From Gammaproteobacteria bacterium (GTDB lineage: Bacteria > Pseudomonadota > Gammaproteobacteria > HK1), in contig OZ244909.1 in NCBI GenBank assembly GCA_965221725.1, positions 2,629,925 through 2,693,924 of the forward strand: a DNA stretch of 64,000 bases, read 5' to 3'. Under the pieces are notes generated by a model. The model was not told the origin of the DNA and made no database searches. It worked only from the letters and a program-made list of their open reading frames with translations. The translations under genes and the position numbers were made by a program. The first letter of the stretch is position 1, and each line of letters begins with the position of its first letter. This document shows, piece after piece, positions 34,249 to 58,032 of the stretch.

Positions 34249-34280
34249 CCCTGCGGCGTCGCGACCCCGGGAAGGGGCGA

Positions 34281-34307: not shown

Positions 34308-34335
34308 GCGGGTGATCTCCACCGGAGTTCCTTCG

Positions 34336-35760: not shown

Positions 35761-35809
35761 CCGGATTCTCTGGCAGAATCGAATCTCCCCGAGAGGTGTT
35801 TCTTCGACC

Positions 35810-37218: not shown

Positions 37219-37332
37219 CCCGCACCAATCCGCGCCCGCAGGACTTGCTTCCGGGTGATGTGCGCCGGCGCGGAAGCGTCTGGATGGTCGGGAGCGTTCG
37301 CGGCGCCCGGACGCGAACCGGGCAATGGCCAG

Positions 37333-38619: not shown

Positions 38620-38627
38620 CCCGAAGC

Positions 38628-39932
38628 TCAGAAGAAACGCACCAACGCGAGCTGGATGTAGTCGTCCCGACGAAGCGGGGCCATCGGGTCGTCACGCTCG
38701 ACGCCGTTCCAGGCCCGTGCCTCCAGCTCGACCCTCCAGTCGTCGCGCACGCGCCGCGAGGCCTCGAGGGTGAGAGCGGTTGCATCGCCTTCGGCATCGG
38801 CGACGACCGCCGCCACGAGTTCGGTGCCCGCCTCGTCGTTGAGCCCGAGCCGCACGCCGGCGAAGAGGTCGTTCTCGAGAGGGTGCGGCGCGCGTCCCCC
38901 ACGCCCGTCGAACAGGTGCTCCACGAGCAGCCCCAGATCGCTGTCGCTCCCGCGGATGCCGAACCATGTGTATTCGAACCCGGCGACCCACGCGAGGTAG
39001 GCATCTCCCTGCCCCGACTGATGGAGCAGCTCCGCCTTCCACAGCATGGCTTCCTTCGTCGCCTGGAGATCGAGCGAAGTGCGCTGCACGACGTCGTAGT
39101 GGGGCGTCAGGACCACCTCCGCCGGAGACGCTGGCGACGATCCGGCGCCAGGGCACCCCGGCCGCGGCGCCGGTTGTCCATCGGCGCACAAGCTCAGGGG
39201 CAGCAGCCGCGGCTCGCGACTCGTGCCGTGGAAGTGCGCCACGCCGATATCGAAATCCCCGAACGCGTGCGACCAGCGCACCGCGAAGTCGACGCGCTCG
39301 CGGCCCGCCCCCGACTCATGGGTGGCGCGGCTCGTGTCGACGAAGGGCTCGGAACGCAGGCGCCCCTCGCGTCCCGGGTAGGTCCGCTCGCGGAATCCCG
39401 GGAGCACGAAGAGATCGAGCACGCCCCAGTCTCGGGCGAGGGAGAGGTTGACGAGCGGCTGGCCCAGCTTGTCTTCGAGGTCGACGTTCTCCACGAGGTC
39501 CGTCTGGTTGATGACGTCGACGAGATGGTAGGACTCGGTGACGCCCCAGAACACGCGACCGATGCCGGCGCGCAGTTCGAAGTCGTCGAAGACCCGCTGG
39601 TACATCAGCTCCCGCACGTCGAAGTGCGTGCGCCGGTCATCGGCCGAATCGACACGCAGGAACGGCGTGAACACCAGGCTCTGCGCGTCGTCGAAGGCGT
39701 GGTAGAGCTCCGGCTGGACCGCGAACGACAGGCCATGGTGCGTCTGGGGAGGATGTTCGGGTGCGTGCAGGAAGACGCGCGGCTCGATTTCCACCCGGCC
39801 GCTCATCTCGAGGGCGCCGAGCGGAGGTGTGATTGCCAGCAGCGAAACCGCGGCGAGCATGATCCGGGTCGGCGCCAAGCCCGACGCGAAGGTCCTGCGA
39901 GCGCCCCCCGACTCGGCATTCATGGCATGCAT
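38628..39932 (-). CDS. Putative outer-membrane beta-barrel protein (family usually found with MMPL + LolA-like genes)
   Basis: Signal-peptide-like N-terminus, RTHFDVREL, GIGRVFWGVTES, VDVINQTD, alternating amphipathic strands and a C-terminal Phe (LVRFF). Confidence 0.7.
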   Translation of the reverse strand: MHAMNAESGGARRTFASGLAPTRIMLAAVSLLAITPPLGALEMSGRVEIEPRVFLHAPEHPPQTHHGLSFAVQPELYHAFDDAQSLVFTPFLRVDSADDRRTHFDVRELMYQRVFDDFELRAGIGRVFWGVTESYHLVDVINQTDLVENVDLEDKLGQPLVNLSLARDWGVLDLFVLPGFRERTYPGREGRLRSEPFVDTSRATHESGAGRERVDFAVRWSHAFGDFDIGVAHFHGTSREPRLLPLSLCADGQPAPRPGCPGAGSSPASPAEVVLTPHYDVVQRTSLDLQATKEAMLWKAELLHQSGQGDAYLAWVAGFEYTWFGIRGSDSDLGLLVEHLFDGRGGRAPHPLENDLFAGVRLGLNDEAGTELVAAVVADAEGDATALTLEASRRVRDDWRVELEARAWNGVERDDPMAPLRRDDYIQLALVRFF

Positions 39933-40042
39933 TCCCGCCGTGCGCGGTGGCGAGCATGATCCGAGCCTGCGCCAGACCCGATGCGAGGTTCCTGCGAGCA
40001 CCCGCCGGCCTGGTAGTCATTGCATGCATTCCCGCCGCGCGC
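39852..40042. repeat. Imperfect tandem duplication, period 97 bp, covering the translation start and signal-peptide N-region of the OM protein gene
   Basis: GGCGAGCATGATCCG at 39852 and 39949; GCATGCATTCCCGCCG at 39925 and 40022. The copies encode MHAMNAESGGARRTFASGLAPTRIMLA and MHAMTTRPAGARRNLASGLAQARIMLA in different frames. Confidence 0.85.
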
Positions 40043-40158
40043 GTCCCGGATGCGCGCACACGGGAGTTGCGCGGCAGTCCTTGCGCGAGACACGGCCAGC
40101 GGATCGAACCCCGTTCCGCGCCGCGTCATCTCGGGAGCCATCTCGATCCCGGCAAACA

Positions 40159-40944
40159 TCACCGGGCTCGCTTGAGCGCGTTGCGATCGAAGTCCCGGTC
40201 GGTGAGTCCGGTGTTCAGACGGTAGTCTTTCCACTCGATCCGGGTGCTCTTGCCGGTCCGGTCGTTCGCCATGTGCATCACGTCGGGACGCCAGAACCGG
40301 TCGAGATACTGACGGTAGCCTTCGATCGTGAGCGTCTTCAGCAGCGTATTCCTGCGATCGTAATACTCTGTCTTGACGATCCGCCAGATCTCCTGGTCGA
40401 TCCATACCACCTGGCGGGTGTATCCGGAGTGTTCGTACTGGGGGAAGTACTCCACCACCATGGTCTGCCTCCCATCGAGCTCTTCGTCGCGCAGCCACTT
40501 GTAGCGAAACTTGTCCACCTCCTGTGACGCAAGGTCCTCGTAGGCGAATTCGCTGCCCATGAACGACCCCGACTTGTTTCTCGACGAGATCCGCTTGACC
40601 CGCTTCAGCGCCGGCAGGTAGAGCCACTGGTCGTCCGGCTTCGTGGCATGCGTATGGCTCAGGAAGGCGGTGCCCTTCACATCCCGCGGGCTTTCGAACC
40701 GGGACAGGCTCTTGTCCCCGTCGCCCTCGACCTCCAGGGTGCTGATGCGAAGCTCGCGACGGCTTTCCTGTCCCTGCCGGTTGCGCAGGGTCATGACCAG
40801 ACTGGCGCGCTGGTCCTTCCAGCCGCTGTCCCGGCGTTCCATCTCCGTGACGATCGCCAGGCCCTTCTCCTCCGGTGTCTGCGCATGTGCGGCGGGCACC
40901 GGAGCGACGGTAAGCAGCACGATCGGCAGAAGTATCGTCTTCAC
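40159..40944 (-). CDS. Outer-membrane lipoprotein-sorting (LolA-like, DUF1329) periplasmic protein
   Basis: GTG start with GGAGG, signal peptide, FESPRDVKGTAFL, DDQWLYLPALKRVKRIS and SFMGSEFAYEDL. Confidence 0.88.
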   Translation of the reverse strand: MKTILLPIVLLTVAPVPAAHAQTPEEKGLAIVTEMERRDSGWKDQRASLVMTLRNRQGQESRRELRISTLEVEGDGDKSLSRFESPRDVKGTAFLSHTHATKPDDQWLYLPALKRVKRISSRNKSGSFMGSEFAYEDLASQEVDKFRYKWLRDEELDGRQTMVVEYFPQYEHSGYTRQVVWIDQEIWRIVKTEYYDRRNTLLKTLTIEGYRQYLDRFWRPDVMHMANDRTGKSTRIEWKDYRLNTGLTDRDFDRNALKRAR

Positions 40945-41045
40945 TCCAGGCCTCCTTCGACAATCTCGAGTGTGGCAGCCGGCGTGCGCGGGCCGCGGAG
41001 CGCTGAACGCGCCGCAAGCGCGTGGATAGCGGGGAGTGGCGCGAA

Positions 41046-42119
41046 TCATCTTCCGATGCCCGAAGCCGCTGCCTGCCCGACGCGGGGAAGACCACGAGCA
41101 AAAGCCGCGAAGAGGAGCTTCAGGGCCGAGTCCGAGCGCACCAGAGCGCTGGTGACGATAACGACGCCCTTTACGCTGGTGCGCGAGATCTTCACCTCCT
41201 GGCCGTTGCTGAAGTGCGGCGTGGCATGAATCCGGCGCAGCGTCAGAACTGCCATGCCCAGTGCCCACAGGCAGTGGCGGCGAATTCCCGTCTCGTGAGC
41301 AGGAATGAGCAAGGTATACCGCAGCGCGTTCGCAAGGTGCTGGCGCGCAACGGCCACCAGTTCGAAGAGTCCCTTCACGAACCTCGGATCCGCCTGACCC
41401 GGAGACAACGAACTCAAATCGAACCCGAAGGAGGAAAAGACGTCCCGCGGCAACCAGCAGACGCCACGTTCGTGATCGTCCCACATGTCCTTGAGTATGT
41501 TGGTCATCTGCAACCCCTGCCCGAAGGATGTGGCCAACGCAAGCATCTCCTCGCGTCGAGCGCGGATCTCATCGGAATAATCGCAGAACAGTTCCGTGAG
41601 CATTTCACCGACCACGCCGGCGACGTGGTAGCAGTAGCGATCCATCTCGGGAAGATCGCTCAGACCCTCCAGGCTTGCCTCCTGCTGGAATTCCGCCATC
41701 CCGCGTTTCATGGTGCGCACGCAGCGCTCCATGGCGGCGCGCTGTGCCGAAGAGAATCCGTGGGTGATCCTCACCACGCGGTCGATGTTCGCGACGAGAT
41801 CCCGCTCGCTGCGGGTTGTCGCTGGTGACAAGAGTGCGGTCAGCTCTCGCGCGAACGCTTCCACATCGTCTTCGTGACCTTCCACGATGGTGATGAAGCG
41901 CTGGAAGTATTCCTCTTTCAACCCCGGTGACAACGCGGGTTCGTCCTCGATGGTGTCGGCGATTCTGCAAAGCAGGTAGGCATTCGCTACCGCATCGCGT
42001 AACGGGTTTGGCAGTTGCGGGATGGTGAAGGCGAACGTGCGGGAGACACCCTGCAGGATGTCCGTCTGGTAGGCGAGATCCCGCCCATGCGACGCGGTGC
42101 AGGAAGTGGCATTGGCCAT
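41046..42119 (-). CDS. sqs: Squalene synthase (single-enzyme, farnesyl-diphosphate farnesyltransferase type)
   Basis: [39 protein letters not shown] and [12 protein letters not shown] (SQS signature); sterol-gene context. Start taken at MANATS. Confidence 0.85.
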
Positions 42120-42287
42120 GAGCTTTTCGTCGTGAGAGATGCTTTCCGGATTCCGAGGTGCGCGTGCCAGCGGCCTCCGCCGGAGGTTCTCGAATCCGGC
42201 CCCTTCCGGTGCGGGCAGACCGATGGTTTCACGCACGAAAGAATACAGTCAAGGCACAGCACCCGACAACACCGATCCTGGCGAGCG

Positions 42288-42316
42288 TTGACAGGTTCCG
42301 ACCGCATGGATAGGGT
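42288..42316 (+). promoter_or_regulatory. Candidate sigma70 promoter for the MMPL gene
   Basis: TTGACA (42288-42293)-17 bp-TAGGGT (42311-42316), 50 nt upstream of ATG 42366. Confidence 0.5.
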
Positions 42317-42365
42317 TCGCAGACCTCCGCCTTCGCGGAGACACCGATCGGGCGGATTCTGCGCC

Positions 42366-44681
42366 ATGTCATTGAAATCGGATTTTTTCGATCTGGTCGT
42401 AGGCCGGCACTGGTTGACGACATTCGCCACTCTGGTGGTGGTCGCGATCCTTGCGGCGGGGATGCAGTACCTGATCGTTGTCGATGTAGGCATCCGAAAT
42501 CACTTCAGTGGCGATGATCCGCATTTGGTCAAGCTGGAAAACTTCGAAGAAACCTATGCGGTATCCGACAGCGTCCTGGTCGTTGCCGCCCCACCGGACG
42601 ACACGGTTTTCACCCGCGAGACGTTGGGTGCAATCGAGCGATTGACAGAGGCGCTGTGGCAGACGCCCTATGCGACTCGTGTCGATTCGATCACCAACTA
42701 CTCGCATTCGGAAGGAAATGAAGAAGGCCTGGTAGTCGAACCGTTGGTCGACGATGCCGCCTTGCTTGATGATGATCAACTCGACCGGGTGCGAACGATT
42801 GCCCTCACCACACAGGATACGGCCGGGCGCTTCGTCTCTCTCGACGGGCGCCTGGCCGGGCTGATCGTCAGTCTCATACTTCCCGATGACGGCCGGGAGC
42901 AGAAAAAAGCCGAAGTGGTCGACGCTCTCTACGACCTCGTCGACGCGCAGAGCACAGCCAATCCCGAAATCGAATATCACATCTATGGCGAGTTGTTGCT
43001 TGATCAAACCATTCGGGAGGCGCTGAATGAGGACATGTCAGTCCTTGCGCCGATTGCGTTTGCGACGATGATGCTGGTTGCCATTCTGGTGCTGCGTTCG
43101 GTATGGGGCGTTCTGGGAATTCTGGTGATGTTGATCGCCGTGATGATATCCGGTTTCGGATTTGCCGGTTGGTTCGGATTGAAATTCTACGGCGAGAGTG
43201 GCGCGGCACTATTCGTGCTGATGGCGATTGCCGTCGCCCATTCAGTCCATCTGATTCAGGGGGTGATGAACGGAATGCGTAGCGGGATGGAACGCAAGGC
43301 TGCGACGATTCATTCGCTGCAGATCAATGCCCGCCCCATCTTTCTGACTTCCGTGACCACCGCAATCGGTTTTCTGAGTCTGAATTTCTCGGAGATGCCG
43401 CCTTTCCGGGTGATGGGCAACATCGTTGCTTTTGGCGCCATGTGCGCATTCGTCTATGCGGTCACGCTTCTGCCGGCTCTGCTGTCGATGATGCCCATGC
43501 GGGCACCAGCCATGAAAAAGGAGGGAGTCGAGTTCTTAGAGCATCTGGGAAATTTCGTGACTTCCAACGGCACCATCCTGCTCTGGATTTTTGCCATTTT
43601 GTCGGTGGTCAGCGCAATCGGGGTTTCGAGAATCGAGCTGGACGACAACAATCTCCAGTTGCTGGAAGAAAGCTACGAACTGCGTCAGTCTGCTGATTTC
43701 ATCAGCGAAAATTTTTCAGGACTGGATACATTCGAATATTCGCTGAGTTCCGGGCGCGAAGGGGGAATTACCGACGTCTCGTACCTGAATCAGGTCGATG
43801 CATTCGCTGATTGGCTCCGCGACCAACCAGAGGTTTCCCACGTCACTGCGGTGACCGATGTGCTGAAGCGGTTGAATCGGAATCTGAACGGCGATGTGGA
43901 CGGCTCCTATATCCTCCCGGAAAGCTCGGATCTTGCGGCGCAATATCTGCTTCTCTACGAGTTTTCTCTCCCGGTGGGACTCGATCTGAACAATCTCATC
44001 GACTTTGACCGTTCAGCGACTCGCATGACGGTCGTGGTTGAAGCGATGTCGGTTAGAGAACAAATCGAATTCGACGAACGAGCCTCCGCCTGGTTGCGGG
44101 AGAACGCACCACAGATCGGAACCGGAGCAACCGGAGTGACCATCGTCAGTGCCTATTCGGTGATGAGGAATATCGTCAAGATGCTGATTGGCACCGTCAT
44201 TGCGATGTCAATTGTCTCGCTCATTCTCGTTTTTGTTTTCAAGAGCGTGTGGCTCGGACTCCTGAGCTTGATACCGAACTTCCTGCCGGCCATCATGGCG
44301 ATGGGGGTTTGGGGATACACTGTGGGAACCGTCAGTGTCGCAGCGTCGATTGTGACCGCGATCGCATTCGGCATCATCGTGGATGACACCATTCACTTGT
44401 TGTCCAAGTACCTGAGATCACGTGGTGAGGGCAAGTCACCCACGGAGGCAATCGTGCCGACCTTCAAGCTCGTCGGGAGGCCGTTGTTGACCACCACCTT
44501 GATTTTCGCGCTGGGGTTTCTGGTATTCGGCGCGTCGGGGCTTGCGACCAATCAGACCCTTGGGGTGCTGGTGGGGCTCACGGTCGTCATCGCGCTGATG
44601 GCGGACTTCCTCCTCTTTCCCCCCCTGCTGGTAGCCCTTGACAAGACCAAAGCATTGGTGACTCGCACAGCGACGCATTAG
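42366..44681 (+). CDS. MMPL-family RND transporter (candidate sterol exporter)
   Basis: Two repeats of TM + periplasmic domain + 5 TM; motifs TTAIGFLSL and GIIVDDTIH. Divergent from sqs, convergent with the DHCR24-like gene. Confidence 0.9.
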   Translation: MSLKSDFFDLVVGRHWLTTFATLVVVAILAAGMQYLIVVDVGIRNHFSGDDPHLVKLENFEETYAVSDSVLVVAAPPDDTVFTRETLGAIERLTEALWQTPYATRVDSITNYSHSEGNEEGLVVEPLVDDAALLDDDQLDRVRTIALTTQDTAGRFVSLDGRLAGLIVSLILPDDGREQKKAEVVDALYDLVDAQSTANPEIEYHIYGELLLDQTIREALNEDMSVLAPIAFATMMLVAILVLRSVWGVLGILVMLIAVMISGFGFAGWFGLKFYGESGAALFVLMAIAVAHSVHLIQGVMNGMRSGMERKAATIHSLQINARPIFLTSVTTAIGFLSLNFSEMPPFRVMGNIVAFGAMCAFVYAVTLLPALLSMMPMRAPAMKKEGVEFLEHLGNFVTSNGTILLWIFAILSVVSAIGVSRIELDDNNLQLLEESYELRQSADFISENFSGLDTFEYSLSSGREGGITDVSYLNQVDAFADWLRDQPEVSHVTAVTDVLKRLNRNLNGDVDGSYILPESSDLAAQYLLLYEFSLPVGLDLNNLIDFDRSATRMTVVVEAMSVREQIEFDERASAWLRENAPQIGTGATGVTIVSAYSVMRNIVKMLIGTVIAMSIVSLILVFVFKSVWLGLLSLIPNFLPAIMAMGVWGYTVGTVSVAASIVTAIAFGIIVDDTIHLLSKYLRSRGEGKSPTEAIVPTFKLVGRPLLTTTLIFALGFLVFGASGLATNQTLGVLVGLTVVIALMADFLLFPPLLVALDKTKALVTRTATH

Positions 44682-46345
44682 TCGTCGGCTTTCTCTCTGA
44701 TTTCAGCGATCAACCAACTTTCCGGCATGACCTTGTCGTAAACCTCGGGGAAAGCATTTTCCGCCTCGTACTTGCGCCGCATGGCGCGGTAGTTGCCGTG
44801 TTCGAAGGTCTGTTCGAATTCATCGCGCGTCATGCAGAGATCGGCATAGAGCATCAAGTAGCCGCCACATTCACGTACGAACTGCTCAAGACGTCGAGTT
44901 GCCGGCACTTGATGGTAGTGACCAGTGGCGGCGCTTGGCGGAATACCGTAGATGCCGAGATCGACGAACATTTGATGGGGTGCACCCTTGGCTGGGTTGC
45001 GAAGAAAACCCTCATTGGCTCCGTGATCGAACAGCCTGACCGGACAGACCCATAGCGGATGAATGTCGAAGAGTTCGTCGCTGATGTGGATCGAGTCGGC
45101 GAGGCATTCGATAGGTATCAAGATATCGTGCGCGACACGATTTGCAAAAGCCTTTCGTCGCACATCCGGCGTCTGCGTCAGCTTCATGAGCGAGATCTTG
45201 GGTGCGCCCATCCATGCCCACAGATAGCGGTACCACACAGAATTGGCGAAGCCGATGAGATCCTTGATCTGAAAAAAAACGGAGGGTGTATGACGGTGGA
45301 AGTAATGGCGAGCTGGAATGTAGTCGGTGAACTTTCCAATTTCTAGACTTTGCGCAGCATGGCTGTAAAACCAGGGTTTATGAAACCTGTTGATGTGATT
45401 GACGCGTACTCCGGGGGGAGGGGAGGCGAATTCACCCTTCAGGATGACGCCCGAGTTTTCGGAAAATATCAATCCCTCGATAAAGCGGGGAGCGTTGGGA
45501 TCGGCGGTAAGTTCTTCCAGTCGGGCACAAAAACCTTCCAGAGAGTGAAATGGCTCGTAATTGAGCTTGACGTGCGGTTGAATTGGCACAATGCGTAACT
45601 CGACCGCTACGAGGAACCCCAACGTACCATGCGACCAGGGTAGCGCGTGGAACAGATCGGCGTTTTCTTCACGCGTGGCTCGAATCAGTTCGCCATTGGC
45701 AACGACGACCTCGAATGCCTCGACCGTTTCGTGCAGAAAACCTTCGCGATGGCTTGTGGTTTCGATGCCGACACCCATGCAGAGTCCGCCCAGTGTCAGG
45801 TCGTCCATCTCCGCCAGAACGGTGAGCGCGTATCCTCTGGGGACGAGAAAATGCGTGATATCCCCCATTGTCACCATCGGTTCGGCGCGCACGATGCCCC
45901 GTACTTCATCCACTTCCAGAACATTGCGGAGATCGATGTGCACCTGATGCATGCTTTCCTTAAAGTCCGGGTTGCGCGGTGTCATCGACTTCCAGGGCTT
46001 GCGTGCCGTGCACATGCGCTTTCCACTGGCATAACCGTCCCGGACTTGCGACTGAATCGCGCGTACGGCGGCGGCATGCCTGGCGTCGGTGTTCCGGAAA
46101 GTGCGATAGAACCACTTGCCAAGATCTTCAATCTTTTGGTAGACGAAGCTGGCCGGCACCGCGAAGCCCGCAATGACGAACTCACGGTGGTGGAACATGA
46201 AATCGGTGAAGGACTTCGGGACCTTCATCACATCAATGTACTCCCTGTCGAAATCTGCTGTTTTCCCCGACTCTGAGTCAGCCCGGAAAACCGCTAATCC
46301 CGAATACAGGGAGGTCTTGTCGCACGGGGAAGTTAATTTTTTCAA
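44678..46345 (-). CDS. Delta24-sterol reductase-like FAD oxidoreductase (DHCR24/DWF1 family)
   Basis: RMCTARKPW, VRAEPMVTMG, LTLGGLCMGVGIETTSH, FHALPWSHGTLGFL, YFHRHTPSVF, PLWVCP and AFPEVYDKV. Start is TTG 46345 (TTGA overlap) or ATG 46228. Confidence 0.88.
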   Translation of the reverse strand: MKKLTSPCDKTSLYSGLAVFRADSESGKTADFDREYIDVMKVPKSFTDFMFHHREFVIAGFAVPASFVYQKIEDLGKWFYRTFRNTDARHAAAVRAIQSQVRDGYASGKRMCTARKPWKSMTPRNPDFKESMHQVHIDLRNVLEVDEVRGIVRAEPMVTMGDITHFLVPRGYALTVLAEMDDLTLGGLCMGVGIETTSHREGFLHETVEAFEVVVANGELIRATREENADLFHALPWSHGTLGFLVAVELRIVPIQPHVKLNYEPFHSLEGFCARLEELTADPNAPRFIEGLIFSENSGVILKGEFASPPPGVRVNHINRFHKPWFYSHAAQSLEIGKFTDYIPARHYFHRHTPSVFFQIKDLIGFANSVWYRYLWAWMGAPKISLMKLTQTPDVRRKAFANRVAHDILIPIECLADSIHISDELFDIHPLWVCPVRLFDHGANEGFLRNPAKGAPHQMFVDLGIYGIPPSAATGHYHQVPATRRLEQFVRECGGYLMLYADLCMTRDEFEQTFEHGNYRAMRRKYEAENAFPEVYDKVMPESWLIAEIREKADD

Positions 46346-48360
46346 GCAGGCAGTTCGTGCAACCGATTCGCAATATGGACTTTCAGCTTTTCGGACACCG
46401 ACAAGGTAGGAAAAGGACTGATTTTCAGTTTGTAGTTGCCGGGGATCGGAGAAAAATCAAAATAATAAGCAATCATCAGCATGGTAACGATCATCTGCAT
46501 GTTCATCCAATCGTACCCCACGCACATGTGGGTACCCAGCCCATACGGGGCGTATCCGTAACTCCGGTGCTCCTTGCGTGGCAACAGATAACGATCGATA
46601 TCGAATTTGAAAGGATCCGGAAAACTGTCACTCATGTAATGTGCTGCGGTTTGCATGATGTGTACCCGTTCCCCTAGCGGCAGTGCGTAGTCTTCCACCA
46701 CGCAGGAATTCGCCACATTTCGAACCTGCATGCTGACAACGGGATACATTCGCAGGCACTCCATGAGAAAACGAAGTGTCACGTCATAGTTTTCCGGGAT
46801 GAACTTCTCCCTGTCGGGATTGCCGTTATCGAAAATTGCGGTTGCCTCCTCCCGAATTCTCGCCGCAAGCTCCGGGTGTCTGGCCATCTCGAAAAGTGCA
46901 AATCCGAGGAGATCACCGACGTAGATACTTTGAAGTATTGGTGCGGCTGCCAGCATGAAGGGGAGGTTCTGCTCCGGCAGAAATTGCGGGTCACTGCTGT
47001 GCAGGCTGATGAGATCGTCCGCCAATTCTCGGACTGCTCCCGCCCGCTGGAAGGGCGTATGGCTTTGCTCTATTCGTCGCACGAAGGTACCGAGAAGTCC
47101 GAAACGTTTCTTCATGGCTGGAGTGCGGGCCATGAATTTCGGCATGATATGTCCGACATAACAGTTGGATGCCGTTTCCTTCCATTTCACCAATTCCTCG
47201 AAGATGTCCTGCGTGTCCGTGCTGACGGTAATCATGGTCATTTGCATATTGATCATCAGCCGAGTATCGCGCTTTACATCGATCTCCGAGTTATTTTGCC
47301 ACTTTCGGTTCGACATGAACTGTCGGGTCAGCCGACATATGTCGTCCAGTCTTTCGTTGAATTTGTCCGTTGAGTAGACGCCTCTCATCACTTTGCGAAG
47401 TCGGAAGTGATCAGCACCATCCAGGGACGTGATCAAACCTTGTGCGCCACAGGCCTGCTCCAGCTCACGAAAATAATTCCCGGAAGTCAGGTACATTCGA
47501 GCATTTCTATGTATCCATCGATTCGCCTTTTCTCCCGCCACAAAAGTCATTGGTTTCTGAAATGGTAGTCCTATCTGGAAAACCGGGCCGTATTGCTCGG
47601 TTATACTTGCAAATAACGCGGGAATGTTGCCATTCCAGAGATGCCGGTTCGACAGAAATTTCTTGATGGAAACTCTGGGAATTTTCTTTCTCAGAGGTGT
47701 GCTTTGTAAAGTAGGCGCGATAATTGTCTGTTCGACGCCGGAAGCAATTGTTCGATTAATCAACTCTACTTTGCAAATCCACTCGATTCGATCTTCCGTT
47801 TCCTTGTCCAGATCAAAAATAAAGCGAACGACATCACATGCATTCAAAAGACCGATAATAAGTGAATCTCGCGGATTGGGTATGATATCCGCGAAGAGCA
47901 CTTCTCCAATTCTTTCCTTGATGTACAGACCTGCGGGATCCTGGATGGCGTATTCCCTTAGTTCCGCATGCCAATCGGAGTAGTTCATTGTGTAGAACCC
48001 TCCATCATGGTGCTGCAGAATTCCCATTCGGACCAAGCGCTGCAATGAGGTATCAATGATGGTTTCCGAATGAACCGCAAGCCGCTCTATCCAGTAACGC
48101 GCTTCCTGCGAACCGGAATGAGACGCAATCTCTTCCAGGCACAGATCCAGAACCGAATCGCCTGTTTTGGTCGAATCGATCAGGAAAAGAGATTTTTCAT
48201 CCGTATCAATGCGTGATTTCAGGGAGAGGTCCGCCAGAACTGCCCCGATGAAGGCACAGTTCAGGGTCCAGCCTTCTACTTGATAGAAATATCCGGTCTG
48301 ATCGTTGAGAAGCATCACAACGAGTTCCTCCGGAACATTCAGCGCATACTTCGAGGTCAT
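46342..48360 (-). CDS. GPP34 (GOLPH3-like) domain - cytochrome P450 fusion protein
   Basis: The N-terminal ~205 aa (EELVVMLLNDQTG...GAVLADLSLKSRIDTD...TKTGDSVLD...WIERL...LQRLVRMGIL) fit the GPP34 pattern. The C-terminal P450 has ExxR (ECLR), DPFKFDIDR and heme motif YGLGTHMCVG. Confidence 0.8.
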   Translation of the reverse strand: MTSKYALNVPEELVVMLLNDQTGYFYQVEGWTLNCAFIGAVLADLSLKSRIDTDEKSLFLIDSTKTGDSVLDLCLEEIASHSGSQEARYWIERLAVHSETIIDTSLQRLVRMGILQHHDGGFYTMNYSDWHAELREYAIQDPAGLYIKERIGEVLFADIIPNPRDSLIIGLLNACDVVRFIFDLDKETEDRIEWICKVELINRTIASGVEQTIIAPTLQSTPLRKKIPRVSIKKFLSNRHLWNGNIPALFASITEQYGPVFQIGLPFQKPMTFVAGEKANRWIHRNARMYLTSGNYFRELEQACGAQGLITSLDGADHFRLRKVMRGVYSTDKFNERLDDICRLTRQFMSNRKWQNNSEIDVKRDTRLMINMQMTMITVSTDTQDIFEELVKWKETASNCYVGHIMPKFMARTPAMKKRFGLLGTFVRRIEQSHTPFQRAGAVRELADDLISLHSSDPQFLPEQNLPFMLAAAPILQSIYVGDLLGFALFEMARHPELAARIREEATAIFDNGNPDREKFIPENYDVTLRFLMECLRMYPVVSMQVRNVANSCVVEDYALPLGERVHIMQTAAHYMSDSFPDPFKFDIDRYLLPRKEHRSYGYAPYGLGTHMCVGYDWMNMQMIVTMLMIAYYFDFSPIPGNYKLKISPFPTLSVSEKLKVHIANRLHELPA

Positions 48361-48420
48361 GTCAACGGCATCCTTGGCTCGACCTGAAGCACTCCGGTTG
48401 CGGCAGCATCGGATGGCGAG

Positions 48421-51400
48421 TCAGACGGAAGCCAGCTCGATCCGGGGTGGTATCGTGTCTGTGGTGCTACCGGTGTTAGCGAGATTCTCCATTCGGCTCC
48501 GGCGGCGTTGCTCGTAGAGACCAAGAGCGTGCAGAGGAAAGTACTGCCGATAGAGGACATAGTCCAGAAGTGCGGTTCGGAAGAACACCCCTGCCATGTC
48601 CTGCTTGGGCCATGTTCCGTCGGGGCGTTGCATGTCGAGCAGGAAGTGGGCGCCGTGCGAAATCGCGGTCCAGTTGGATTCTCCCGCCTCGATGAGCGCG
48701 ATCAGCGCCCATGCGGTCTGGATCACCTGGCTTTCCTCGTGCTGAACGTATCGGCCGGTCAGGCATCCGCTGTGGTGCTCGCCCCATCCGCCGTCTTCCC
48801 GCTGGCGCCCCAGCAGCCAGTGACAGGCCGAACGAAGCGCCGGATCGCCGGGCTGGACCCCGGCGGCGAGGAGACCTCTGATCCCGAAGAGGGTGCCGTA
48901 AATGAACTGAATTCCCCATACGCCGCGCCACGATCCGTCTCTCTTCTGGGTTCGACGAAGCCAGACGGCAGCCCGAGAGACGGCTCTGGAGATAATATCC
49001 GTCATTATATCATCCGCTATCTCCGGCACATGCTCTCGACAAGCCGAGAGTGCCGCCAAGCAGGACCCCGTACATTCGACGAAGGAGTGCTCGGTCATCG
49101 ATTCGCCGAACATTTCGGCCGGGTTCAGCCACTCCAGACCGACGAGCGAGCGTCGTGCCTCGTAGCTGCCAAAGCCGCCATCGCGGTTTTGGCGGCGCAA
49201 CATGAACCTGACCGCTTCGCTCAGCGCGGCCGGATTCGATCTACCGCGTCCGGCGGCGACGATTCCGAGCACCGCCTCTGCGGTACAGTCGCTCACCGGC
49301 CACCCATGCCATCCGCCGGGGAAACACCAGCCGCCTTTGGGATCGGACCGATAGGCATCGCGGAATCCGTCGAAGCTGGTGCCGATCTGCTCTCTGAGCA
49401 GGAATTCGGCGCCGCGCTCAAGGGCATCCCGAGCCCCGTCGAACGTGGGAACCTCAGCCAGCGCCTGCAGCGCGAACCCGCTGTCCCATGAGGCACTTCT
49501 CGCTCCGGTGACACGCGCCCCCTGCTCCTCATCCTCCCAGATCCAGCCGTCCATTCGCGCCAGTGCCTGGTCGAGGTCGGCATCGTCCGGATCGCGCAGC
49601 CACAGGGCAAGCATGTTGAGAAGACCGCTGACTGGAGAGATGCTCGTATGATCGGTGGTCCGCAGCTCCCATTTGATCTGTCGGAGGATCTCTTCGGTGC
49701 ATCGGGCGCGCAAGCGCTCGCCGTGGAAGCGGTCTAACAGCCGCGCGAATCCGTACCCCGCCTTGAGCCACACACTCGGCCGCGCGAACAGATCCGCCTC
49801 CCGCAGGCACCCGCGGGCAGCGGAGAAATCCGCGCTGGCGAATCCTCGGGGGAACAGCTCTTCGCGTAGCGACGCGATCAAGGGGGTGACGGGCGCCTGG
49901 AACCGGTGCGCATAGATCACCGCCATCGCCATGTAGATGAGCCGCGTATGGCAGTACCAGTTCGAGGGGTGCAAGGGGACCCAGCGCGGCAGGCCCCACA
50001 GTTCCGGCAGGATGGCGTTGACTCCACGCCAGTCGTAGAGGTTGAGGAGCGCGAGCCAGAATTTCCCCCAGCTCGGAATCCCGATAATTCCTTCGGCCTG
50101 TATGAATCGAAGGGCCGGCCCGACCAGAGGGTCGTCTCGTTCGACGCCAAGCGACCGTGCCGCGACGTACACCAGCGCGGTGACGAAGAGCTGGGGCGGC
50201 GAGTGCTCGTGCATGCCCCACGCTCCCCCTTCGAGCCGACTCTGTTCGAAGAAGCGAAGCACATGCCGACGCCGGGTGGGTTCGAGCGGACGGCCGATGA
50301 TATGGTGCAGCAGCACATATTGCGCGGTCAGCATGGGACACCAGACCATCTCGCCCTCCCAGCCTCCGTCCTTGCTCTGAAGACTCAGAAGGCGATCGGC
50401 CGCGCTGCGCAATGCCGGACCGGCATCGGGCGATTCAACCTCCTTCGGCCGGTCGGACCTGGAGGCAACTCTCTCCGAGGCCATGGAGTGCAGAAACGCG
50501 CGGGCAAGATTGTACCGTACGCTCTCTTCCCTTTCCTTGCGCCCGGCTCTCACCTTGCGCAATTGCAGGGCCCCGCACATGAACCACCAGATACGGACGG
50601 TGAGCGCACGGAAGACGGTACTGAACCGATGCAAGGTGAGGCGGGGGGGACGGGACAGTGAAACTTCCCTGGCCAGTGCCCGGATCGCGGTTCCGGAAAA
50701 AGCGAGACTCATGCCGGCCACGGATCGGTCTTCGCATGCGAGGATCCGCGTGGTTCGATCGCGGTACCGAGCACTTGTCCGCCACCCCATATAGACGGCG
50801 TGTCGTAGTGCGTGCGCCTCGGCTCGATAATCGGCGAAGACTTCGTAGAGCCCCATGGCGAGCAACTCCGGCATGTGGGTATCCCGGAGCCGCCGGTTGG
50901 TGAAGTCGCGAAAGCTCTCGCTCTCGGCGAGGGCAAGCGCATCGCCGAAACCCAGGGTCATGCCGACCGCAGTCATGGGATGGTAGTGCCCGGCCGCGTC
51001 ACCGATCAGTACTCGATGCGAGTTCCCGTAGGCAGCGCGCGGCCGGAGTTGATTGGCCGCAAAGTGGAACTGCCTTGCCCGAATTGCTTCGACGAACTTC
51101 GATCTGAGCGCCTCCGGCATGAGATCGGCATAGGATTCCGTCAGAAAACCGACCCGGTCCCGTTTTGCCCAGCAATCCAACGGAACATCGATGATGATTC
51201 GGACGCAGCCATCCGCCACACTGTACGCGAGCACCGGGCCTGGTCCGCCGAGCAGTACATGGCCCTGGCCCTCGAAGGGCAAGTTCCCCCCCGTCAACGT
51301 GACCCCGACCATTCGCGAACAGTGAATGGGGTCTGTCGACAGCCCGAGCGATCGACGCACGGTCGAAGCCCGGCCGTCGGCGCCGACGATTCGCGCCGCG

Positions 51401-51873
51401 TTCAGGGTGTGCAAGGCGCCGTTGCAGCTATAGGTCAGCCGCTGGTCTTCAACCGCGGTGACCCGTGCCCTGGTGACAAAATCTATCGCCGCCTCGTCTT
51501 CGATGGCTTCCCGCAACTTCGAGACGAGCAACGTATGCTCGCATACCAGACCCTGGGAGCCTTTGGGGTAGGGAAGTGCGATCGGTTCCGATCCGTCTTC
51601 CGGGAACACCACGAATCCATTGCCGGCGGCGCTGCGGGGCAAGGTGTCGAGATCGATCCCGAGGTTACGCAGTATCCGCACGGCCGGCGGATGCAGCCAT
51701 TCGCCCGCCATGCGCTCGGCCGCCTTGGGGTTCGCCTCCAGCAGAGCGACGCGAGCGCCTCTTTGCGCGTGGGCCAGTGCACACACGTTCCCCACCGGCC
51801 CCGCGCCGACGATGACCACGTCGTAACACCGCGAAGCGGCGCCGTTCTCGGGAAGATGTCCGGCCGTGTTCAA
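48421..51873 (-). CDS. osc: Squalene epoxidase - oxidosqualene cyclase fusion (~1150 aa)
   Basis: FAD domain: VIVGAGPVG, GEWLHP and GDAAGHYHPMTAVGM. Cyclase: QW repeats (QSKDGGW, QNRDGGF, QKRDGSW, QREDGGWGE, QRPDGTW) and the OSC catalytic DCTAE (49276-49290). True start taken as TTG 51873 overlapping the cyp51 TGA. Confidence 0.92.
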   Translation of the reverse strand: MNTAGHLPENGAASRCYDVVIVGAGPVGNVCALAHAQRGARVALLEANPKAAERMAGEWLHPPAVRILRNLGIDLDTLPRSAAGNGFVVFPEDGSEPIALPYPKGSQGLVCEHTLLVSKLREAIEDEAAIDFVTRARVTAVEDQRLTYSCNGALHTLNAARIVGADGRASTVRRSLGLSTDPIHCSRMVGVTLTGGNLPFEGQGHVLLGGPGPVLAYSVADGCVRIIIDVPLDCWAKRDRVGFLTESYADLMPEALRSKFVEAIRARQFHFAANQLRPRAAYGNSHRVLIGDAAGHYHPMTAVGMTLGFGDALALAESESFRDFTNRRLRDTHMPELLAMGLYEVFADYRAEAHALRHAVYMGWRTSARYRDRTTRILACEDRSVAGMSLAFSGTAIRALAREVSLSRPPRLTLHRFSTVFRALTVRIWWFMCGALQLRKVRAGRKEREESVRYNLARAFLHSMASERVASRSDRPKEVESPDAGPALRSAADRLLSLQSKDGGWEGEMVWCPMLTAQYVLLHHIIGRPLEPTRRRHVLRFFEQSRLEGGAWGMHEHSPPQLFVTALVYVAARSLGVERDDPLVGPALRFIQAEGIIGIPSWGKFWLALLNLYDWRGVNAILPELWGLPRWVPLHPSNWYCHTRLIYMAMAVIYAHRFQAPVTPLIASLREELFPRGFASADFSAARGCLREADLFARPSVWLKAGYGFARLLDRFHGERLRARCTEEILRQIKWELRTTDHTSISPVSGLLNMLALWLRDPDDADLDQALARMDGWIWEDEEQGARVTGARSASWDSGFALQALAEVPTFDGARDALERGAEFLLREQIGTSFDGFRDAYRSDPKGGWCFPGGWHGWPVSDCTAEAVLGIVAAGRGRSNPAALSEAVRFMLRRQNRDGGFGSYEARRSLVGLEWLNPAEMFGESMTEHSFVECTGSCLAALSACREHVPEIADDIMTDIISRAVSRAAVWLRRTQKRDGSWRGVWGIQFIYGTLFGIRGLLAAGVQPGDPALRSACHWLLGRQREDGGWGEHHSGCLTGRYVQHEESQVIQTAWALIALIEAGESNWTAISHGAHFLLDMQRPDGTWPKQDMAGVFFRTALLDYVLYRQYFPLHALGLYEQRRRSRMENLANTGSTTDTIPPRIELASV

Positions 51874-53279
51874 CTGAATACACTCGGTTGCGCGCGGCGA
51901 CGGTAGGACACCCGGCACGGTGTCACTGGTCCTGTTACCCAGGTCCCGTAGTTCGGGGCAGGAAACTCCACCATCGGTTCGAAATCGAAGCGGTCGAGCA
52001 AGACCGTCCAGATCGCCTTGAGTTGCATCACGGCAAATTTCTCCCCCATGCACCGATGCTTCCCCCCGCCAAAGCCGATCAGGGTGTAGTGGTGCTGCTT
52101 GCCCTCGCTCCGGGGGGGGGCGAACCGCTCCGGATCGAAGCGTTCCGGATCGGCAAACACGTCGGACAGGCGATGCGACACCGCCGGAGAGATCATGGCC
52201 AGGGTCCCGGCCGGCACGGTGTGACCCGCATACTGCAACGATCGACGCACCTTGCGGACCAGCACGATCAGCGGCGGGTGCAGGCGCTCGCACTCGCGCA
52301 CCGTGCATTCGAGTGCCGTCTGCTTCTTGAGGCTCGCGAGACTCATGGCGCCTTCCTCTGCGTAGACCTCACGCATTTCGCCGCGGATCCGGGCTATCCA
52401 GTCCGGCGCACGGAACATCTCGAGCCCCATCCAGCTCGCAAGCACGGCGCTGGTATGCTGGCCGGCAAACAGCACTGTCAGCAAAAGCCCGATAATCTCG
52501 TCTTCGCTCAAGGCCCGACCATCCTTGTAACGGGCCTGCATGAGTGCCTGCATGAAATCTTCGGCTACGGTACCGGCCTCCCGGCGCCTCCTGATGATTC
52601 CGCCGAGGATCTCCGCAATCTTGCGTCGGGCCCGGTCACGTTTTCGATGCGCCGGGATAGGCAACCTCGGGAAGAAGAACCCGAGGAGGTTGATGCCCTC
52701 CTGTAGATCGTGATAGGCCTCGGCGAACCCCGAGTCCACCTGATCGCGGACTTCCTGGCCAAGCAGGCTGCGGCTGGCGATGTTGACGGTGAGCTTGTTC
52801 AGCGCCACCGGCAGGTCGATGGTCCCCTCCTCTCCGAGCGCATCGGCAAACCGACTGGCTTCGTCGTGCATGATGTGAGCATAGTTGCGCATCGGCGCGT
52901 CTCGCAGCGCCGGATACAGCAATGCCAACTGCTCCGCCATGACCTCGGGCGCGACATCGTAGGCGACACCACGTCCGAAGACGGGCACCGTGAACTGGTA
53001 GACGGCCCTGGCATCAAGCTGGTCCGCCGGCGCCCGGAAATAGCAATCGTGGGCCTCCAGCCCCGCAAACAGCACAAACCGGCGGGGGCCGAGCCTGAAG
53101 CTGACAAGCTCACCGTGTTCATGCTGGCAACGGTCGAGCATGGCTACCGGATCCTTTTGAAACTCCGGCAGGTGGCCGAGCAACGGCCAGCCACCGGAGA
53201 GTTCCGGAATCGATTTCCCCGTCGAGGAGGCGGACTGCGCTGAGCGCAGAGGCACTGCGATGTCGGACCGATTTGCCAT
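51870..53279 (-). CDS. cyp51: Sterol 14alpha-demethylase
   Basis: YQFTVPVFGRGVAYD (SRS1), LFAGQHTS (CYP51 I-helix), ECERLHPP and GFGGGKHRCMGE. Start taken at MANRSD. Confidence 0.93.
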   Translation of the reverse strand: MANRSDIAVPLRSAQSASSTGKSIPELSGGWPLLGHLPEFQKDPVAMLDRCQHEHGELVSFRLGPRRFVLFAGLEAHDCYFRAPADQLDARAVYQFTVPVFGRGVAYDVAPEVMAEQLALLYPALRDAPMRNYAHIMHDEASRFADALGEEGTIDLPVALNKLTVNIASRSLLGQEVRDQVDSGFAEAYHDLQEGINLLGFFFPRLPIPAHRKRDRARRKIAEILGGIIRRRREAGTVAEDFMQALMQARYKDGRALSEDEIIGLLLTVLFAGQHTSAVLASWMGLEMFRAPDWIARIRGEMREVYAEEGAMSLASLKKQTALECTVRECERLHPPLIVLVRKVRRSLQYAGHTVPAGTLAMISPAVSHRLSDVFADPERFDPERFAPPRSEGKQHHYTLIGFGGGKHRCMGEKFAVMQLKAIWTVLLDRFDFEPMVEFPAPNYGTWVTGPVTPCRVSYRRRAQPSVFS

Positions 53280-53287
53280 CTCTGTTC

Positions 53288-54400
53288 TCAATAGACAAAG
53301 GGGACCAGCGACCAGGGCACGCGCTTTCGGTAGCGCCCCCACAGCTCCCCGTACTTGGCGCGGCAGCGCCGCTCATCACGGCGCGCACGATGCCACAACA
53401 AACTTGCAAGCCACGCCGGCAACAGGAAGGGGATCCAGGACGCAAAACTGGTGGTCAGCACGAACGCGAGGTAGATGCAGATCTCGCCCGTGTAGTTGAG
53501 ATGTCGTGCGATCCCCCAGAACCCGGATACAAGCAGGCGCCCGTCGAGAGCTTGGGCGGGTTTGCCCCAGATCGTGATGGACGGGTCACGCTTGAAGCGA
53601 TGCTTTTGCCCGTTGGCGCCTCGGAACAACCAGAAGCCGAGCACGTACAGGAGCATGATCGCGACGGCCGCGAAAGGGCTCAACGGGGGACCGGATGCGT
53701 CGACCAGCCACCAGCCAGCGATGCAGTAGAAGAAGGGCACGAGCACGTAATCACCCCAGACGAGCATCCACCCGAAACGCTCGCTGACGATGTCCCAGGT
53801 ATGGATCATTCCGCCCTCGAACAGGAAGTAATTCAGTATGTACGCTATCGTCAGGAGCTGGTATAGGGCCATCGCCAGGGTCAGGTGGCCGTAGGTTTCG
53901 TATTGCACCACCGCGAAAGAAGCATTGAACAATGCCAGCCCGATGAGGGACGGGCGGTAGCTGAACAGCTTGAGATCGACCCCGAACCAGGCAGGGTTGA
54001 GTTCCACGCCGTAGAAGGCCCCGCGCCAGAATCCCGGCGGAGATTCGGTCTGCTCTCGGAGCTGCTTGCGGGTGCCTTGCCAATACAGCCAGCCGGAAAT
54101 CGCGAACGCGAACAGGTTTGCAGCCACGAAGAGCGCGAAGAAATGCGTATACAGGGACGACAGGGAGAACACGTCCAAGACCTGTGCAATGCCTGCCACC
54201 AGCGCGGTGAGCAGCAGCAGCGTCAGGCCGTTGAGCTTGTAGGTGACCGATATTCCGCCGAGGTCCGGCCCCTTGACCCGGCGCCCCGGCAGGAGCGCCG
54301 AGCCCACGAACAAGGCCCCGATGAAGACGGCTGTCATCACCGCCGCCTCGATCAGCAGCCCGCCCGAAAGGGGGGGGATCGGCAGAGGCAGATTAGGCAT
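53288..54400 (-). CDS. ERG4/ERG24-family sterol reductase (probably Delta14-reductase)
   Basis: YKLNG, GVELNP, DIVSERFGWMLVWGD, VPFFY, ANGQKHRFK, LLVSGFWGIARHLNYTGE and HRARRDERRCRAKYG. Confidence 0.9.
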   Translation of the reverse strand: MPNLPLPIPPLSGGLLIEAAVMTAVFIGALFVGSALLPGRRVKGPDLGGISVTYKLNGLTLLLLTALVAGIAQVLDVFSLSSLYTHFFALFVAANLFAFAISGWLYWQGTRKQLREQTESPPGFWRGAFYGVELNPAWFGVDLKLFSYRPSLIGLALFNASFAVVQYETYGHLTLAMALYQLLTIAYILNYFLFEGGMIHTWDIVSERFGWMLVWGDYVLVPFFYCIAGWWLVDASGPPLSPFAAVAIMLLYVLGFWLFRGANGQKHRFKRDPSITIWGKPAQALDGRLLVSGFWGIARHLNYTGEICIYLAFVLTTSFASWIPFLLPAWLASLLWHRARRDERRCRAKYGELWGRYRKRVPWSLVPFVY

Positions 54401-54410
54401 CGGTGTTTCC

Positions 54411-55532
54411 TTATGCGACCTCTGCCACCGCCGGTTCGGGGCTCGGCACCGCGCTCTTCTTCTCCCTGTCCAGATACTCCTGCCACTTGCGCACCGTCAC
54501 ATGCTGAAACGCAGGCACCACCCGGTTGAATTCGAGGGTACGGGCGTCCCAGTGCTGCTCATACCCCTCCTGTTCGGCTTCCAGCGCGAACCCGTCCTCG
54601 CAGAGCAGCGGACCGATGAGCACCCGGTTGGAGATCCTCATCACCACGTCCATTGCGAACCGGGGGATATGTATCGGCACCAGCGGGATCTTCAGGGACT
54701 TGAAATAGAACAGAAAGAATGCCCGCGTGGTGCGCTCGTTGATGGGCAGGACGAAGAGCCAGTGCTTGATCGCCTCATCGGTGTTCGACCACTGGTAGGG
54801 ATATTCGTAGCAGAGCTTCATCGAATTGGTGTCGATTCGGTTGCGATCGACGAACAATCCGGAAATGCGGCCGCGACCGACGCTCGTGTCGTAATCGACA
54901 TGCACGTTGTCGCCGATCGTCTCGCATCTCGTGAGCTGGGCGCCTTCGAACGGACGGTAGCGGCGGTGCAGCCAGGCGTGACTGAAGTCGCTGACGTTGT
55001 CGATCACCATCGAGTGGTGGGCCGACCAAGTGAAATTCAGTGGTACACAGGCCCACCGACCGGGACCTTCAAGCTCGGGAATCTCGGGAATACGGCGTAT
55101 TTCGGCGAGTTCCGGATTCCCGGGAAACATCCAGACCAGTCCGTAGCGCACTTTCACGGGATAGGTTCGGATGGAGACGTCCGGCAAGCCTCGCTCGGGG
55201 AGTTCGTGTGCGGCTTCGGCCAGCTTTCCGTCCGGACCGTACTTCCATCCGTGGTAGGCGCATACGAGCCGGCAGCCCTCTACCGCGCCGATTGAAAGCT
55301 TTAGCTGGCGATGTGCGCAGCGATTGTCCATGGCGTGAAACGAACCATCCGTGGCCCGAAACAGCGCAATCGAGTGCTTCCAGAAAATGACTTCGACGAC
55401 GGTCCCCGGCTTCATGTTGCGCACTTCCTCGACCGCATACCAGTAGTCGGGATCCATACCCGTGGCACGCACCTTCTGGCGTAGGTTGCTGGCTTCCTCG
55501 AAGCCGGGCGGACGCGATGATACGGGGGTCAT
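54411..55532 (-). CDS. sdmA: Rieske-type sterol C4-methyl oxygenase (SdmA-like)
   Basis: Rieske CAH...CAYHGW, mononuclear Fe DNVSDFSHAWLH...ED, and YPYQ...HWLFVLP..ERTTRAFF. Resembles Methylococcus SdmA as recalled; paired with an SdmB-like gene. Confidence 0.82.
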   Translation of the reverse strand: MTPVSSRPPGFEEASNLRQKVRATGMDPDYWYAVEEVRNMKPGTVVEVIFWKHSIALFRATDGSFHAMDNRCAHRQLKLSIGAVEGCRLVCAYHGWKYGPDGKLAEAAHELPERGLPDVSIRTYPVKVRYGLVWMFPGNPELAEIRRIPEIPELEGPGRWACVPLNFTWSAHHSMVIDNVSDFSHAWLHRRYRPFEGAQLTRCETIGDNVHVDYDTSVGRGRISGLFVDRNRIDTNSMKLCYEYPYQWSNTDEAIKHWLFVLPINERTTRAFFLFYFKSLKIPLVPIHIPRFAMDVVMRISNRVLIGPLLCEDGFALEAEQEGYEQHWDARTLEFNRVVPAFQHVTVRKWQEYLDREKKSAVPSPEPAVAEVA

Positions 55533-56683: not shown

Positions 56684-56742
56684 GTTTCTGATCCTACTGT
56701 GTTTTTCAGTCCCGGAGACGAAACCCGACTTCGTCCCTGCGT

Positions 56743-57973: not shown

Positions 57974-58032
57974 GTCCCTGCGTCGGGCCGCATCGCGCCC
58001 CCGACCTGTTTTGGAGTCGGCTACGCAAGCGT

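Follow-up and report, generated by a model that had tools for sequence, protein, structure and literature searches.

A gene in the 64,000-nucleotide stretch of a Gammaproteobacteria bacterium (HK1) that we analysed (GenBank assembly GCA_965221725.1, contig OZ244909.1, positions 2,629,925 to 2,693,924; hereafter the window, in whose numbering positions are given) encodes a GPP34 domain fused to a cytochrome P450. On balance, comparative sequence evidence leads us to regard the product as probably a cytoplasmic P450 with an accessory role in sterol tailoring, from the GPP34_L family of sponge symbionts. We favour sterol tailoring because sterol-modifying and sterol-transport genes adjoin the fusion across many lineages, over the published proposal that GPP34 is a secreted effector that binds phosphatidylinositol-4-phosphate (PI4P) and blocks phagosome maturation (PMC11706023). 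The gene and its parts are these:

46342-48360, minus strand, GPP34-P450 fusion gene, 672 aa, GPP34_L family member (open reading frame (ORF) and translation; Pfam PF05719 and PF00067)
47782-48333, minus strand, GPP34/GOLPH3-fold domain, residues 10-193, acidic, most PI4P-binding residues gone (Pfam, Foldseek, profile alignment, charge)
46345-47685, minus strand, complete cytochrome P450 domain, residues ~226-672, basic (profile alignment, Foldseek)
46912-46941, minus strand, I-helix segment, residues 474-483, P-I-L-Q-S-I-Y-V-G-D (alignment to the CYP51 I-helix, column counts)
46750-46761, minus strand, K-helix ExxR, E534-C-L-R537 (invariant in 45/45 sequences)
46516-46551, minus strand, heme-binding loop Y-G-L-G-T-H-M-C-V-G with proximal ligand Cys613 (C613, H611 and G615 invariant)

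The reading frame is unbroken, and both domains that a sequence-only reading had seen joined in it are recovered by profile searches: GPP34 at 85.8 bits (PF05719; E 5e-24, residues 10-193, gathering cut-off 29.1) and, in the C-terminal part, P450 at 105 bits (PF00067), with C613 and E534/R537 in place; such agreement lies well outside what chance would produce. Contigs assembled from independent public runs show 0 differences from the window across 42067-48760 and thereby rule out misassembly as the origin of the fusion; taken with homologues that share the architecture, they also rule out a frameshift. The protein has neither a signal peptide nor a transmembrane segment, as judged from its sequence. 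The nearest relatives of the window are a Thiotrichales metagenome-assembled genome (MAG) and the JGI metagenome 3300009898.

The sequence-only reading knew of no characterised GPP34-P450 fusion; this holds biochemically, but the architecture is already known and not new. Proteins that combine GPP34 and P450 have been named GPP34_L (n = 656; Microbiome 2025, PMC11706023) and have the same domain order, length (~670 aa) and monophyletic architecture as the window protein. They are almost restricted to sponge (and coral) symbionts and are expressed in situ; in many phyla 60-100% of symbiont genomes carry them, at 1-6 copies each (PMC11706023). In our searches, more than 120 protein clusters at the 90%-identity level (50-92% identity) carry both Pfam domains, as do 117/117 full-length matches among the 120 listed. 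At the 50%-identity level, 171 clusters match the P450 domain at E<=1e-30; 44 of the 150 listed are 630-720 aa long, and most of the full-length ones listed have an N-terminal extension of ~220 aa, annotated as GPP34 in all four clusters looked up. Sponge metagenomes and MAGs (Spongia_Bin9, A. aerophoba and P. ficiformis contigs) supply the homologues at 45-92% identity.

The sterol reading is carried by the genes that surround these homologues. We collected 84 homologue loci (denoted L below), clustered their ORFs and removed near-duplicates, leaving 60 loci in which neighbours were counted within 10 kb of the fusion homologue. Five families of neighbours, recurring beside homologues from several phyla, bear on function:

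31 of 60 loci (commonest neighbour), MMPL/RND transporter with Patched/sterol-sensing-domain (SSD) matches (Pfam)
23 of 60 loci, Rieske oxygenase with KshA_C domain (E 3e-24 to 3-ketosteroid 9-alpha-hydroxylase, KshA)
22 of 60 loci, methyltransferase with Sterol_MT_C domain (sterol C-24 methyltransferase, SMT)
12 of 60 loci, LkcE-like flavin amine oxidase
5 of 60 loci, squalene monooxygenase-oxidosqualene cyclase (SQMO-OSC) gene

An RND, SMT, Rieske or OSC gene is present in 49/60 loci; where at least 5 kb is available on both flanks, 28 of 30 loci hold such a gene or that for the flavin amine oxidase, and the pattern is present in every identity bin from 45% to >60%. Whole sterol operons adjoin members at 92% (L085), 72% (L002, L004, L006), 60% (L008) and 51% (L020/L070) identity, and at 29% identity in the P450 domain (L086/L087), the last being a contiguous arrangement of two tandem fusions, a methyltransferase and SdmB-SdmA-ERG24-CYP51-SQMO/OSC. 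L020/L070 repeat the gene order of an A. aerophoba contig that encodes methyltransferases of experimentally demonstrated sterol-methylating activity (Brown et al. 2023, PMC10070321), with the fusion directly beside one methyltransferase. In the reverse direction, starting from SQMO-OSC homologues chosen regardless of GPP34, the fusion was present in two of four loci (L096 and L094, the latter part of a Nitrospira sponge MAG), each time beside a flavin oxidase and methyltransferases. Short or split GPP34 genes (Ca. Poriferisodalis, Ca. Palauibacter) likewise adjoin a KshA-like Rieske gene together with either a P450 or an RND pump. The linkage to osc genes proposed for a census by the sequence-only reading thus came out split, with few cyclases yet sterol-type genes at most loci; its suggestion of a new sterol-tailoring step gained strong comparative support from the recurrence of SMT, KshA-like Rieske, SSD-type RND and sterol operons beside homologues.

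Several observations concern the family itself. The LkcE-like flavin amine oxidase (cluster c5, 12 loci) directly adjoins GPP34-P450 in sterol clusters (L094, L096); it also resembles a fatty-acid double-bond isomerase (PDB 2b9w) and is a candidate sterol enzyme. Paralogous GPP34-P450 copies, tandem or nearby, are common (L086/L087, L088, L039, L048, L053, L091), and in L004 an interruption of ~830 bp splits the copy at 10001-12813 into two matches (10001-11356 and 12187-12813). An OEP-MFP-AcrB pump lies between two divergent GPP34-P450 genes in L088, a contig of TARA-labelled origin, so the family may extend beyond sponges. Rare GPP34-Rieske and GPP34-PotA fusions have also been described (PMC11706023), and their composition fits the oxygenase and transporter theme of the neighbours.

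The same neighbourhoods bear on two other functions. An improbable one is general lipophile or xenobiotic handling, in which another hydrophobic sponge metabolite or a membrane lipid would be oxidised and then exported by the neighbouring efflux pump, sterol genes being neighbours in some lineages only. Distant members beside OEP-MFP-AcrB (L088) or MacB/FtsX (L090) with no sterol gene, and AcrB-type pumps in 7/60 loci, are in keeping with such a role, as is the presence of 1-6 copies per genome (PMC11706023), a number that suggests diversified substrates; within the window clade (>=45% identity), however, the neighbours are specifically of sterol type (Sterol_MT_C, KshA_C, SSD, OSC operons). 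Slightly less probable again is host-steroid catabolism, with the P450 as a CYP125/CYP142-like side-chain hydroxylase acting alongside a KshA-like 9-alpha-hydroxylase and flavin/SDR dehydrogenases, sponge sterols as carbon source and the RND protein mediating uptake. The KshA-like Rieske genes, in 23/60 loci and beside split or short GPP34 genes, would suit it, as would SDR and flavin oxidase neighbours and the frequency of the family in symbionts with no nearby OSC. Yet anabolic sterol methyltransferases are equally frequent neighbours (22/60), the gene lies inside biosynthetic operons in at least five lineages, and HpnN-type RND pumps are exporters. No recurrent neighbour family matches a ring-cleavage enzyme or KstD, and the conserved families include no recurring beta-oxidation set, the few such genes seen being isolated in the flanks (3HCDH and ECH in L090).

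In the window, the fusion gene is set in a biosynthetic operon. As the sequence-only reading had placed it, the fusion gene lies between the cyclase, here an SQMO-OSC fusion, and a gene called DHCR24-like, here a FAD_binding_4 flavoenzyme. The order on the minus strand, followed by the transporter and squalene synthase beyond the FAD_binding_4 gene (and, after these, a LolA-like lipoprotein gene on the minus strand), is:

55529-56683, minus strand, SdmB-like SDR / 3-beta-HSD (Pfam Epimerase, 3Beta_HSD)
54411-55532, minus strand, SdmA-like Rieske 4-methylsterol monooxygenase (NCBIfam NF052579, 403 bits; Pfam Rieske and VanA_C)
53288-54400, minus strand, sterol reductase of the ERG4/ERG24 family (Pfam PF01222, 246 bits)
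51870-53279, minus strand, canonical CYP51 (sterol 14-alpha-demethylase), 469 aa (M. capsulatus CYP51 match, 362 bits, E 5e-107; start codon)
48421-51873, minus strand, SQMO-OSC fusion, ~1150 aa (Pfam SE and SQHop_cyclase_N/_C; TIGR03463, 733 bits)
46342-48360, minus strand, the GPP34-P450 gene
44678-46228, minus strand, FAD_binding_4 flavoenzyme, 516 aa (Pfam; orthologue in L085 also 516 aa)
42366-44681, plus strand, RND/MMPL transporter with sterol-sensing-domain signature, HpnN/HAE3-like (Pfam MMPL, Patched, Sterol-sensing; NCBIfam HAE3, HpnN)
41046-42236, minus strand, squalene synthase (SQS_PSY; Pfam, 202 bits)

The CYP51 gene is hidden under a spurious N-terminal extension of a 1295-aa ORF and was for that reason missed by the sequence-only reading, as it is whenever the longest ORFs are followed; the SQMO-OSC gene instead has a TTG start that overlaps the CYP51 stop, with orthologues of 1129-1152 aa. 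The presence of a canonical CYP51 rules out the fusion P450 as the missing 14-demethylase of the operon: because the operon encodes CYP51, the fusion protein is an additional P450 and not the pathway demethylase. Translational coupling from the fusion gene to the FAD gene through a 4-bp overlap was also rejected, given that the TTG start involved is probably spurious; the likely start is an ATG at 46228 with GGGAG upstream, ~113 nt downstream of the fusion gene, and the L085 orthologue starts alike. Compared with the PDB, which has no DHCR24 entry, the FAD_binding_4 protein matched only generic FAD-linked oxidases, and a promoter and terminator scan of the cluster gave counts not above shuffled controls.

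The core set agrees with the clusters of Brown et al. 2023 (PMC10070321), which contain SdmAB, ERG24, CYP51 and an SQMO-OSC with ERG1 and ERG7 matches; in the supplementary data of that study, ERG1 and ERG7 share one gene id. GPP34-P450, the KshA-like Rieske protein, the flavin oxidase and RND were not listed there as pathway members, and the cluster in the window differs in having no methyltransferase. The SQMO-OSC fusion is common to at least 120 protein clusters (67-91% identity) whose MAG labels include Thiotrichales, Rhodospirillales, Nitrospira and Acidimicrobiia, a distribution suggesting that the sterol operon has been transferred between sponge symbionts of different phyla.

Within this operon the fusion gene belongs to a separable block:

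42283-48409, unstranded, 6.1-kb low-GC accessory cassette comprising the RND, FAD enzyme and GPP34-P450 genes (blastn collinearity break, per-gene GC)

A Thiotrichales MAG contig (L093) matches the window collinearly, with nucleotide identity of ~90%, over 32727-42282 and 48410-56746 (blastn) and has ~300 bp in place of the 6.1 kb, which contains exactly these three genes, between those for SQMO-OSC and squalene synthase. The cassette genes are lower in GC (RND 0.55, FAD enzyme 0.55, GPP34-P450 0.49) than the flanking sterol genes (0.60-0.64), and a second relative at 89.8% identity (L085) carries the cassette. Neither terminal repeats nor att-like sites were found at the cassette ends. The cassette looks horizontally acquired on these sequence features, the alternative being a deletion in L093. 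The sterol operon is complete without it (squalene synthase, SQMO-OSC, CYP51, ERG24-like, SdmA, SdmB), and the fusion gene is accessory to the core pathway because L093, a ~90%-identical relative, lacks the cassette. The placement of the gene in the sterol operon by the sequence-only reading therefore stands as context, but the gene is an accessory member.

The P450 domain is complete: in a profile of 32 homologues, residues 244-644 align to Methylococcus capsulatus CYP51 residues 27-427. Neither the 32 close nor the 45 divergent homologues vary at C613, at the ExxR residues E534/R537 or at a PERF-like R590-Y591, and the domain is basic (pI 9.1; family median 9.2). An AlphaFold model of the full protein (pLDDT 82.3, pTM 0.73) has P450s as its only structural matches (Foldseek TMt range 0.76-0.81; human CYP51 0.81, CYP102A5 0.80, CYP46A1 0.78). 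The I-helix departs from convention. The A-G-H-H-T of CYP51 is aligned with Q-S-I-Y-L, and S478, Y480, G482 and D483 are invariant in the window clade, giving S-x-Y-(L/V)-G-D instead of A-G-x-(D/E)-T; divergent fusions carry A-G-L-D-(A/V) and stand-alone relatives A-G-L-T-V. The threonine position is thus aliphatic family-wide (L/V in the window clade, A/V in all relatives), and the window clade has a derived Tyr at the acid position, where divergent fusions carry D and stand-alone relatives carry T. The canonical acid-alcohol pair (A/G-G-x-D/E-T) is absent, and the derived I-helix suggests a non-standard mode of oxygen activation.

CYP51 is the closest well-known relative: M. capsulatus CYP51fx (PDB 6mcw) is the best PDB profile match (E 1e-23), human CYP51 is among the best structural matches, and the B'-region pattern (Y-x-R...G-x-x-G-L/V) and sterol-operon context are similar. 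Nevertheless, identity is ~17% (family level >40%), AGxHT is replaced by QSIYL, and a separate true CYP51 (362 bits) lies two genes upstream in the operon; for these reasons the fusion P450 is not CYP51 and would therefore belong to a different CYP family with a different reaction. NCBIfam and the PDB gave only weak, non-specific matches to named CYP families. Like P450 BM3/CYP102, CYP51-ferredoxin and CYP116B, the protein joins a P450 covalently to a helper domain, but in those systems the partner is a C-terminal redox module, whereas here it is an N-terminal adaptor fold that cannot supply electrons because it is cofactor-less.

That N-terminal region folds, in prediction, as the sequence-only reading had proposed. 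The AlphaFold model of residues 1-215 (pLDDT 87.7, pTM 0.86) has as its significant PDB matches in Foldseek only GOLPH3 (TMq 0.76 and 0.70; E 4e-8) and Vps74. The fold is shared with eukaryotic GOLPH3 and yeast Vps74 (TMq 0.63-0.76), the Pfam score is above cut-off and a Trp aligned with W81 is kept; however, identity is ~16-20%, the N-terminal basic extension is missing, the domain is fused to an enzyme, and bacteria have no Golgi, coatomer or glycosyltransferase context. In the PI4P-binding pocket (human W81, R90, R171, R174), three of the four ligand residues are lost in the window protein: in the profile alignment W81 corresponds to W31, R90 to I38, R171 to E99 and R174 to I102. Across 32 homologues W31 is invariant, position 38 is I/V/A/T, position 99 is E/Q/N/H/D (E in 27/32) and position 102 is I/V/M. 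The alignment to Vps74 concurs on R97 but puts the Trp elsewhere, leaving the Trp mapping uncertain; approximately half of the divergent fusions have Arg at position 102, and none has the full PI4P set. The domain is also strongly acidic (pI 4.55, net charge -17; medians of pI 4.6 and -16 in 32 close homologues, and of -11 in divergent fusions), which is at odds with an electropositive membrane-binding surface, as judged by whole-domain net charge and not by a mapped surface. GOLPH3-style anchoring to phosphoinositides or anionic membranes, the targeting role suggested by the sequence-only reading, is therefore unlikely, given the loss of ligand residues and the acidity of the domain. The most conserved stretch (G23-Y-F, G30-W31, N34-C35, G39, D52/D54, W90-x-E-R93, D103) lines the former PI4P pocket, so some ligand or partner may still be bound there.

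These features leave the published proposal, a secreted effector whose GPP34 domain binds host PI4P on the phagosome and blocks its maturation with the P450 as an unspecified helper, very improbable: the GOLPH3 fold, the alignment of W81 with the invariant W31, and the near-confinement of the family to sponge (and coral) symbionts with expression in situ (PMC11706023) are what speak for it, against which R90, R171 and R174 are I/V, E/D and I in the window clade, the domain is strongly acidic (family median net charge -11 to -16), a signal peptide is absent, the gene lies on the coding strand of a cytoplasmic sterol-enzyme operon in a cassette shared with an inner-membrane transporter, a heme P450 dependent on a redox partner would be unusual as a secreted effector, and the proposing study looked at neither sterols nor the flanks of GPP34_L.

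In the sterol-tailoring reading, the P450 would oxidise a sterol that either the operon makes or, where symbionts have no nearby OSC, as is the case for many, the sponge host provides, and the neighbouring RND transporter would move the substrate or the product. The GPP34 pocket, conserved but hydrophobic and acidic, would not serve as a PI4P anchor; the domain would most likely be an adaptor that either docks the basic P450 on a membrane partner, for example the transporter, or presents a lipid. GOLPH3 binds the basic tails of Golgi enzymes, and by loose analogy the acidic GPP34 domain may attach to a membrane partner through basic regions that the partner exposes to the cytoplasm. We consider any one specific role of the domain doubtful.

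Several points weigh against sterol tailoring. An OSC gene lies within 10 kb in only the five loci counted above, and the distant members L088 (AcrB-type pump) and L090 (MacB-type) have no sterol gene nearby. Identity between the P450 domain and any solved P450 is just ~17%, and CYP51, although its top PDB profile match, is barely ahead of non-sterol P450s. A redox partner gene was not found near the fusion gene. Among public runs, the locus was absent from the RNA runs, in which only an insertion sequence (IS) element was seen. The docking or adaptor role of GPP34 is pure inference.

Three things appear to be new relative to the literature: that the family has a sterol context, that the gene belongs to an accessory cassette of its operon, and that sequence evidence speaks against PI4P binding. 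The GPP34_L study proposed a secreted PI4P binder with no biochemical function established, does not mention sterols and analysed flanking genes for the short form only (PMC11706023), whereas the window gene lies in a sterol operon on an apparently mobile cassette; no paper linking GPP34 to bacterial sterols was found in the other literature searched. The sterol link offers a directly testable alternative function for an abundant, symbiosis-specific family for which the PI4P phagosome idea is the only published hypothesis. It also bears on which organisms make or remodel the unusual sterols of sponges, and with that on debates over 24-isopropylcholestane and related biomarkers, as well as on the role of bacterial GOLPH3-fold domains and on how soluble bacterial P450s gain access to membrane sterols. 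The cassette, present in the window and L085 and missing in L093, provides a natural presence/absence pair that eases experimental design.

More tentatively, GPP34-P450, the KshA-like Rieske protein, one or more SMTs, the LkcE-like flavin oxidase and the SSD-type RND transporter might together form a horizontally mobile sterol-remodelling module that plugs into de novo sterol operons, as in the window, or acts on host sterols, with the GPP34 fold as a sterol- or transporter-docking adaptor and not a phosphoinositide reader; we hold this broader scheme possible, with less confidence than the tailoring role itself. Were it true, it would explain why GPP34 ranks among the most symbiosis-specific gene families of sponge microbiomes, and bacteria would shape the sterol and sterane-biomarker repertoire of sponges.

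Further genes border the sterol cluster on both sides. At the operon end, a DDE_Tnp_1 IS element (56747-58020; transposase ORF 56763-57887, minus strand) is inserted; it is not in L093, its depth in metagenome runs is ~10x that of its neighbours, and it alone of this region was seen in an RNA run. At the opposite side, the cluster is adjoined by the LolA-like lipoprotein gene (40159 to ~40935, minus strand), with genes for a 457-aa protein that has no Pfam match (38628-40001, minus strand) and a type I phosphodiesterase (37333-38619, minus strand) beside it. The LolA-like and 457-aa genes recur by sterol genes or SSD-type RND genes (L008, L009, L022, L024, L085, L093), and all three occur together in L093; from this recurrence, the three genes may constitute an envelope lipid-trafficking set.

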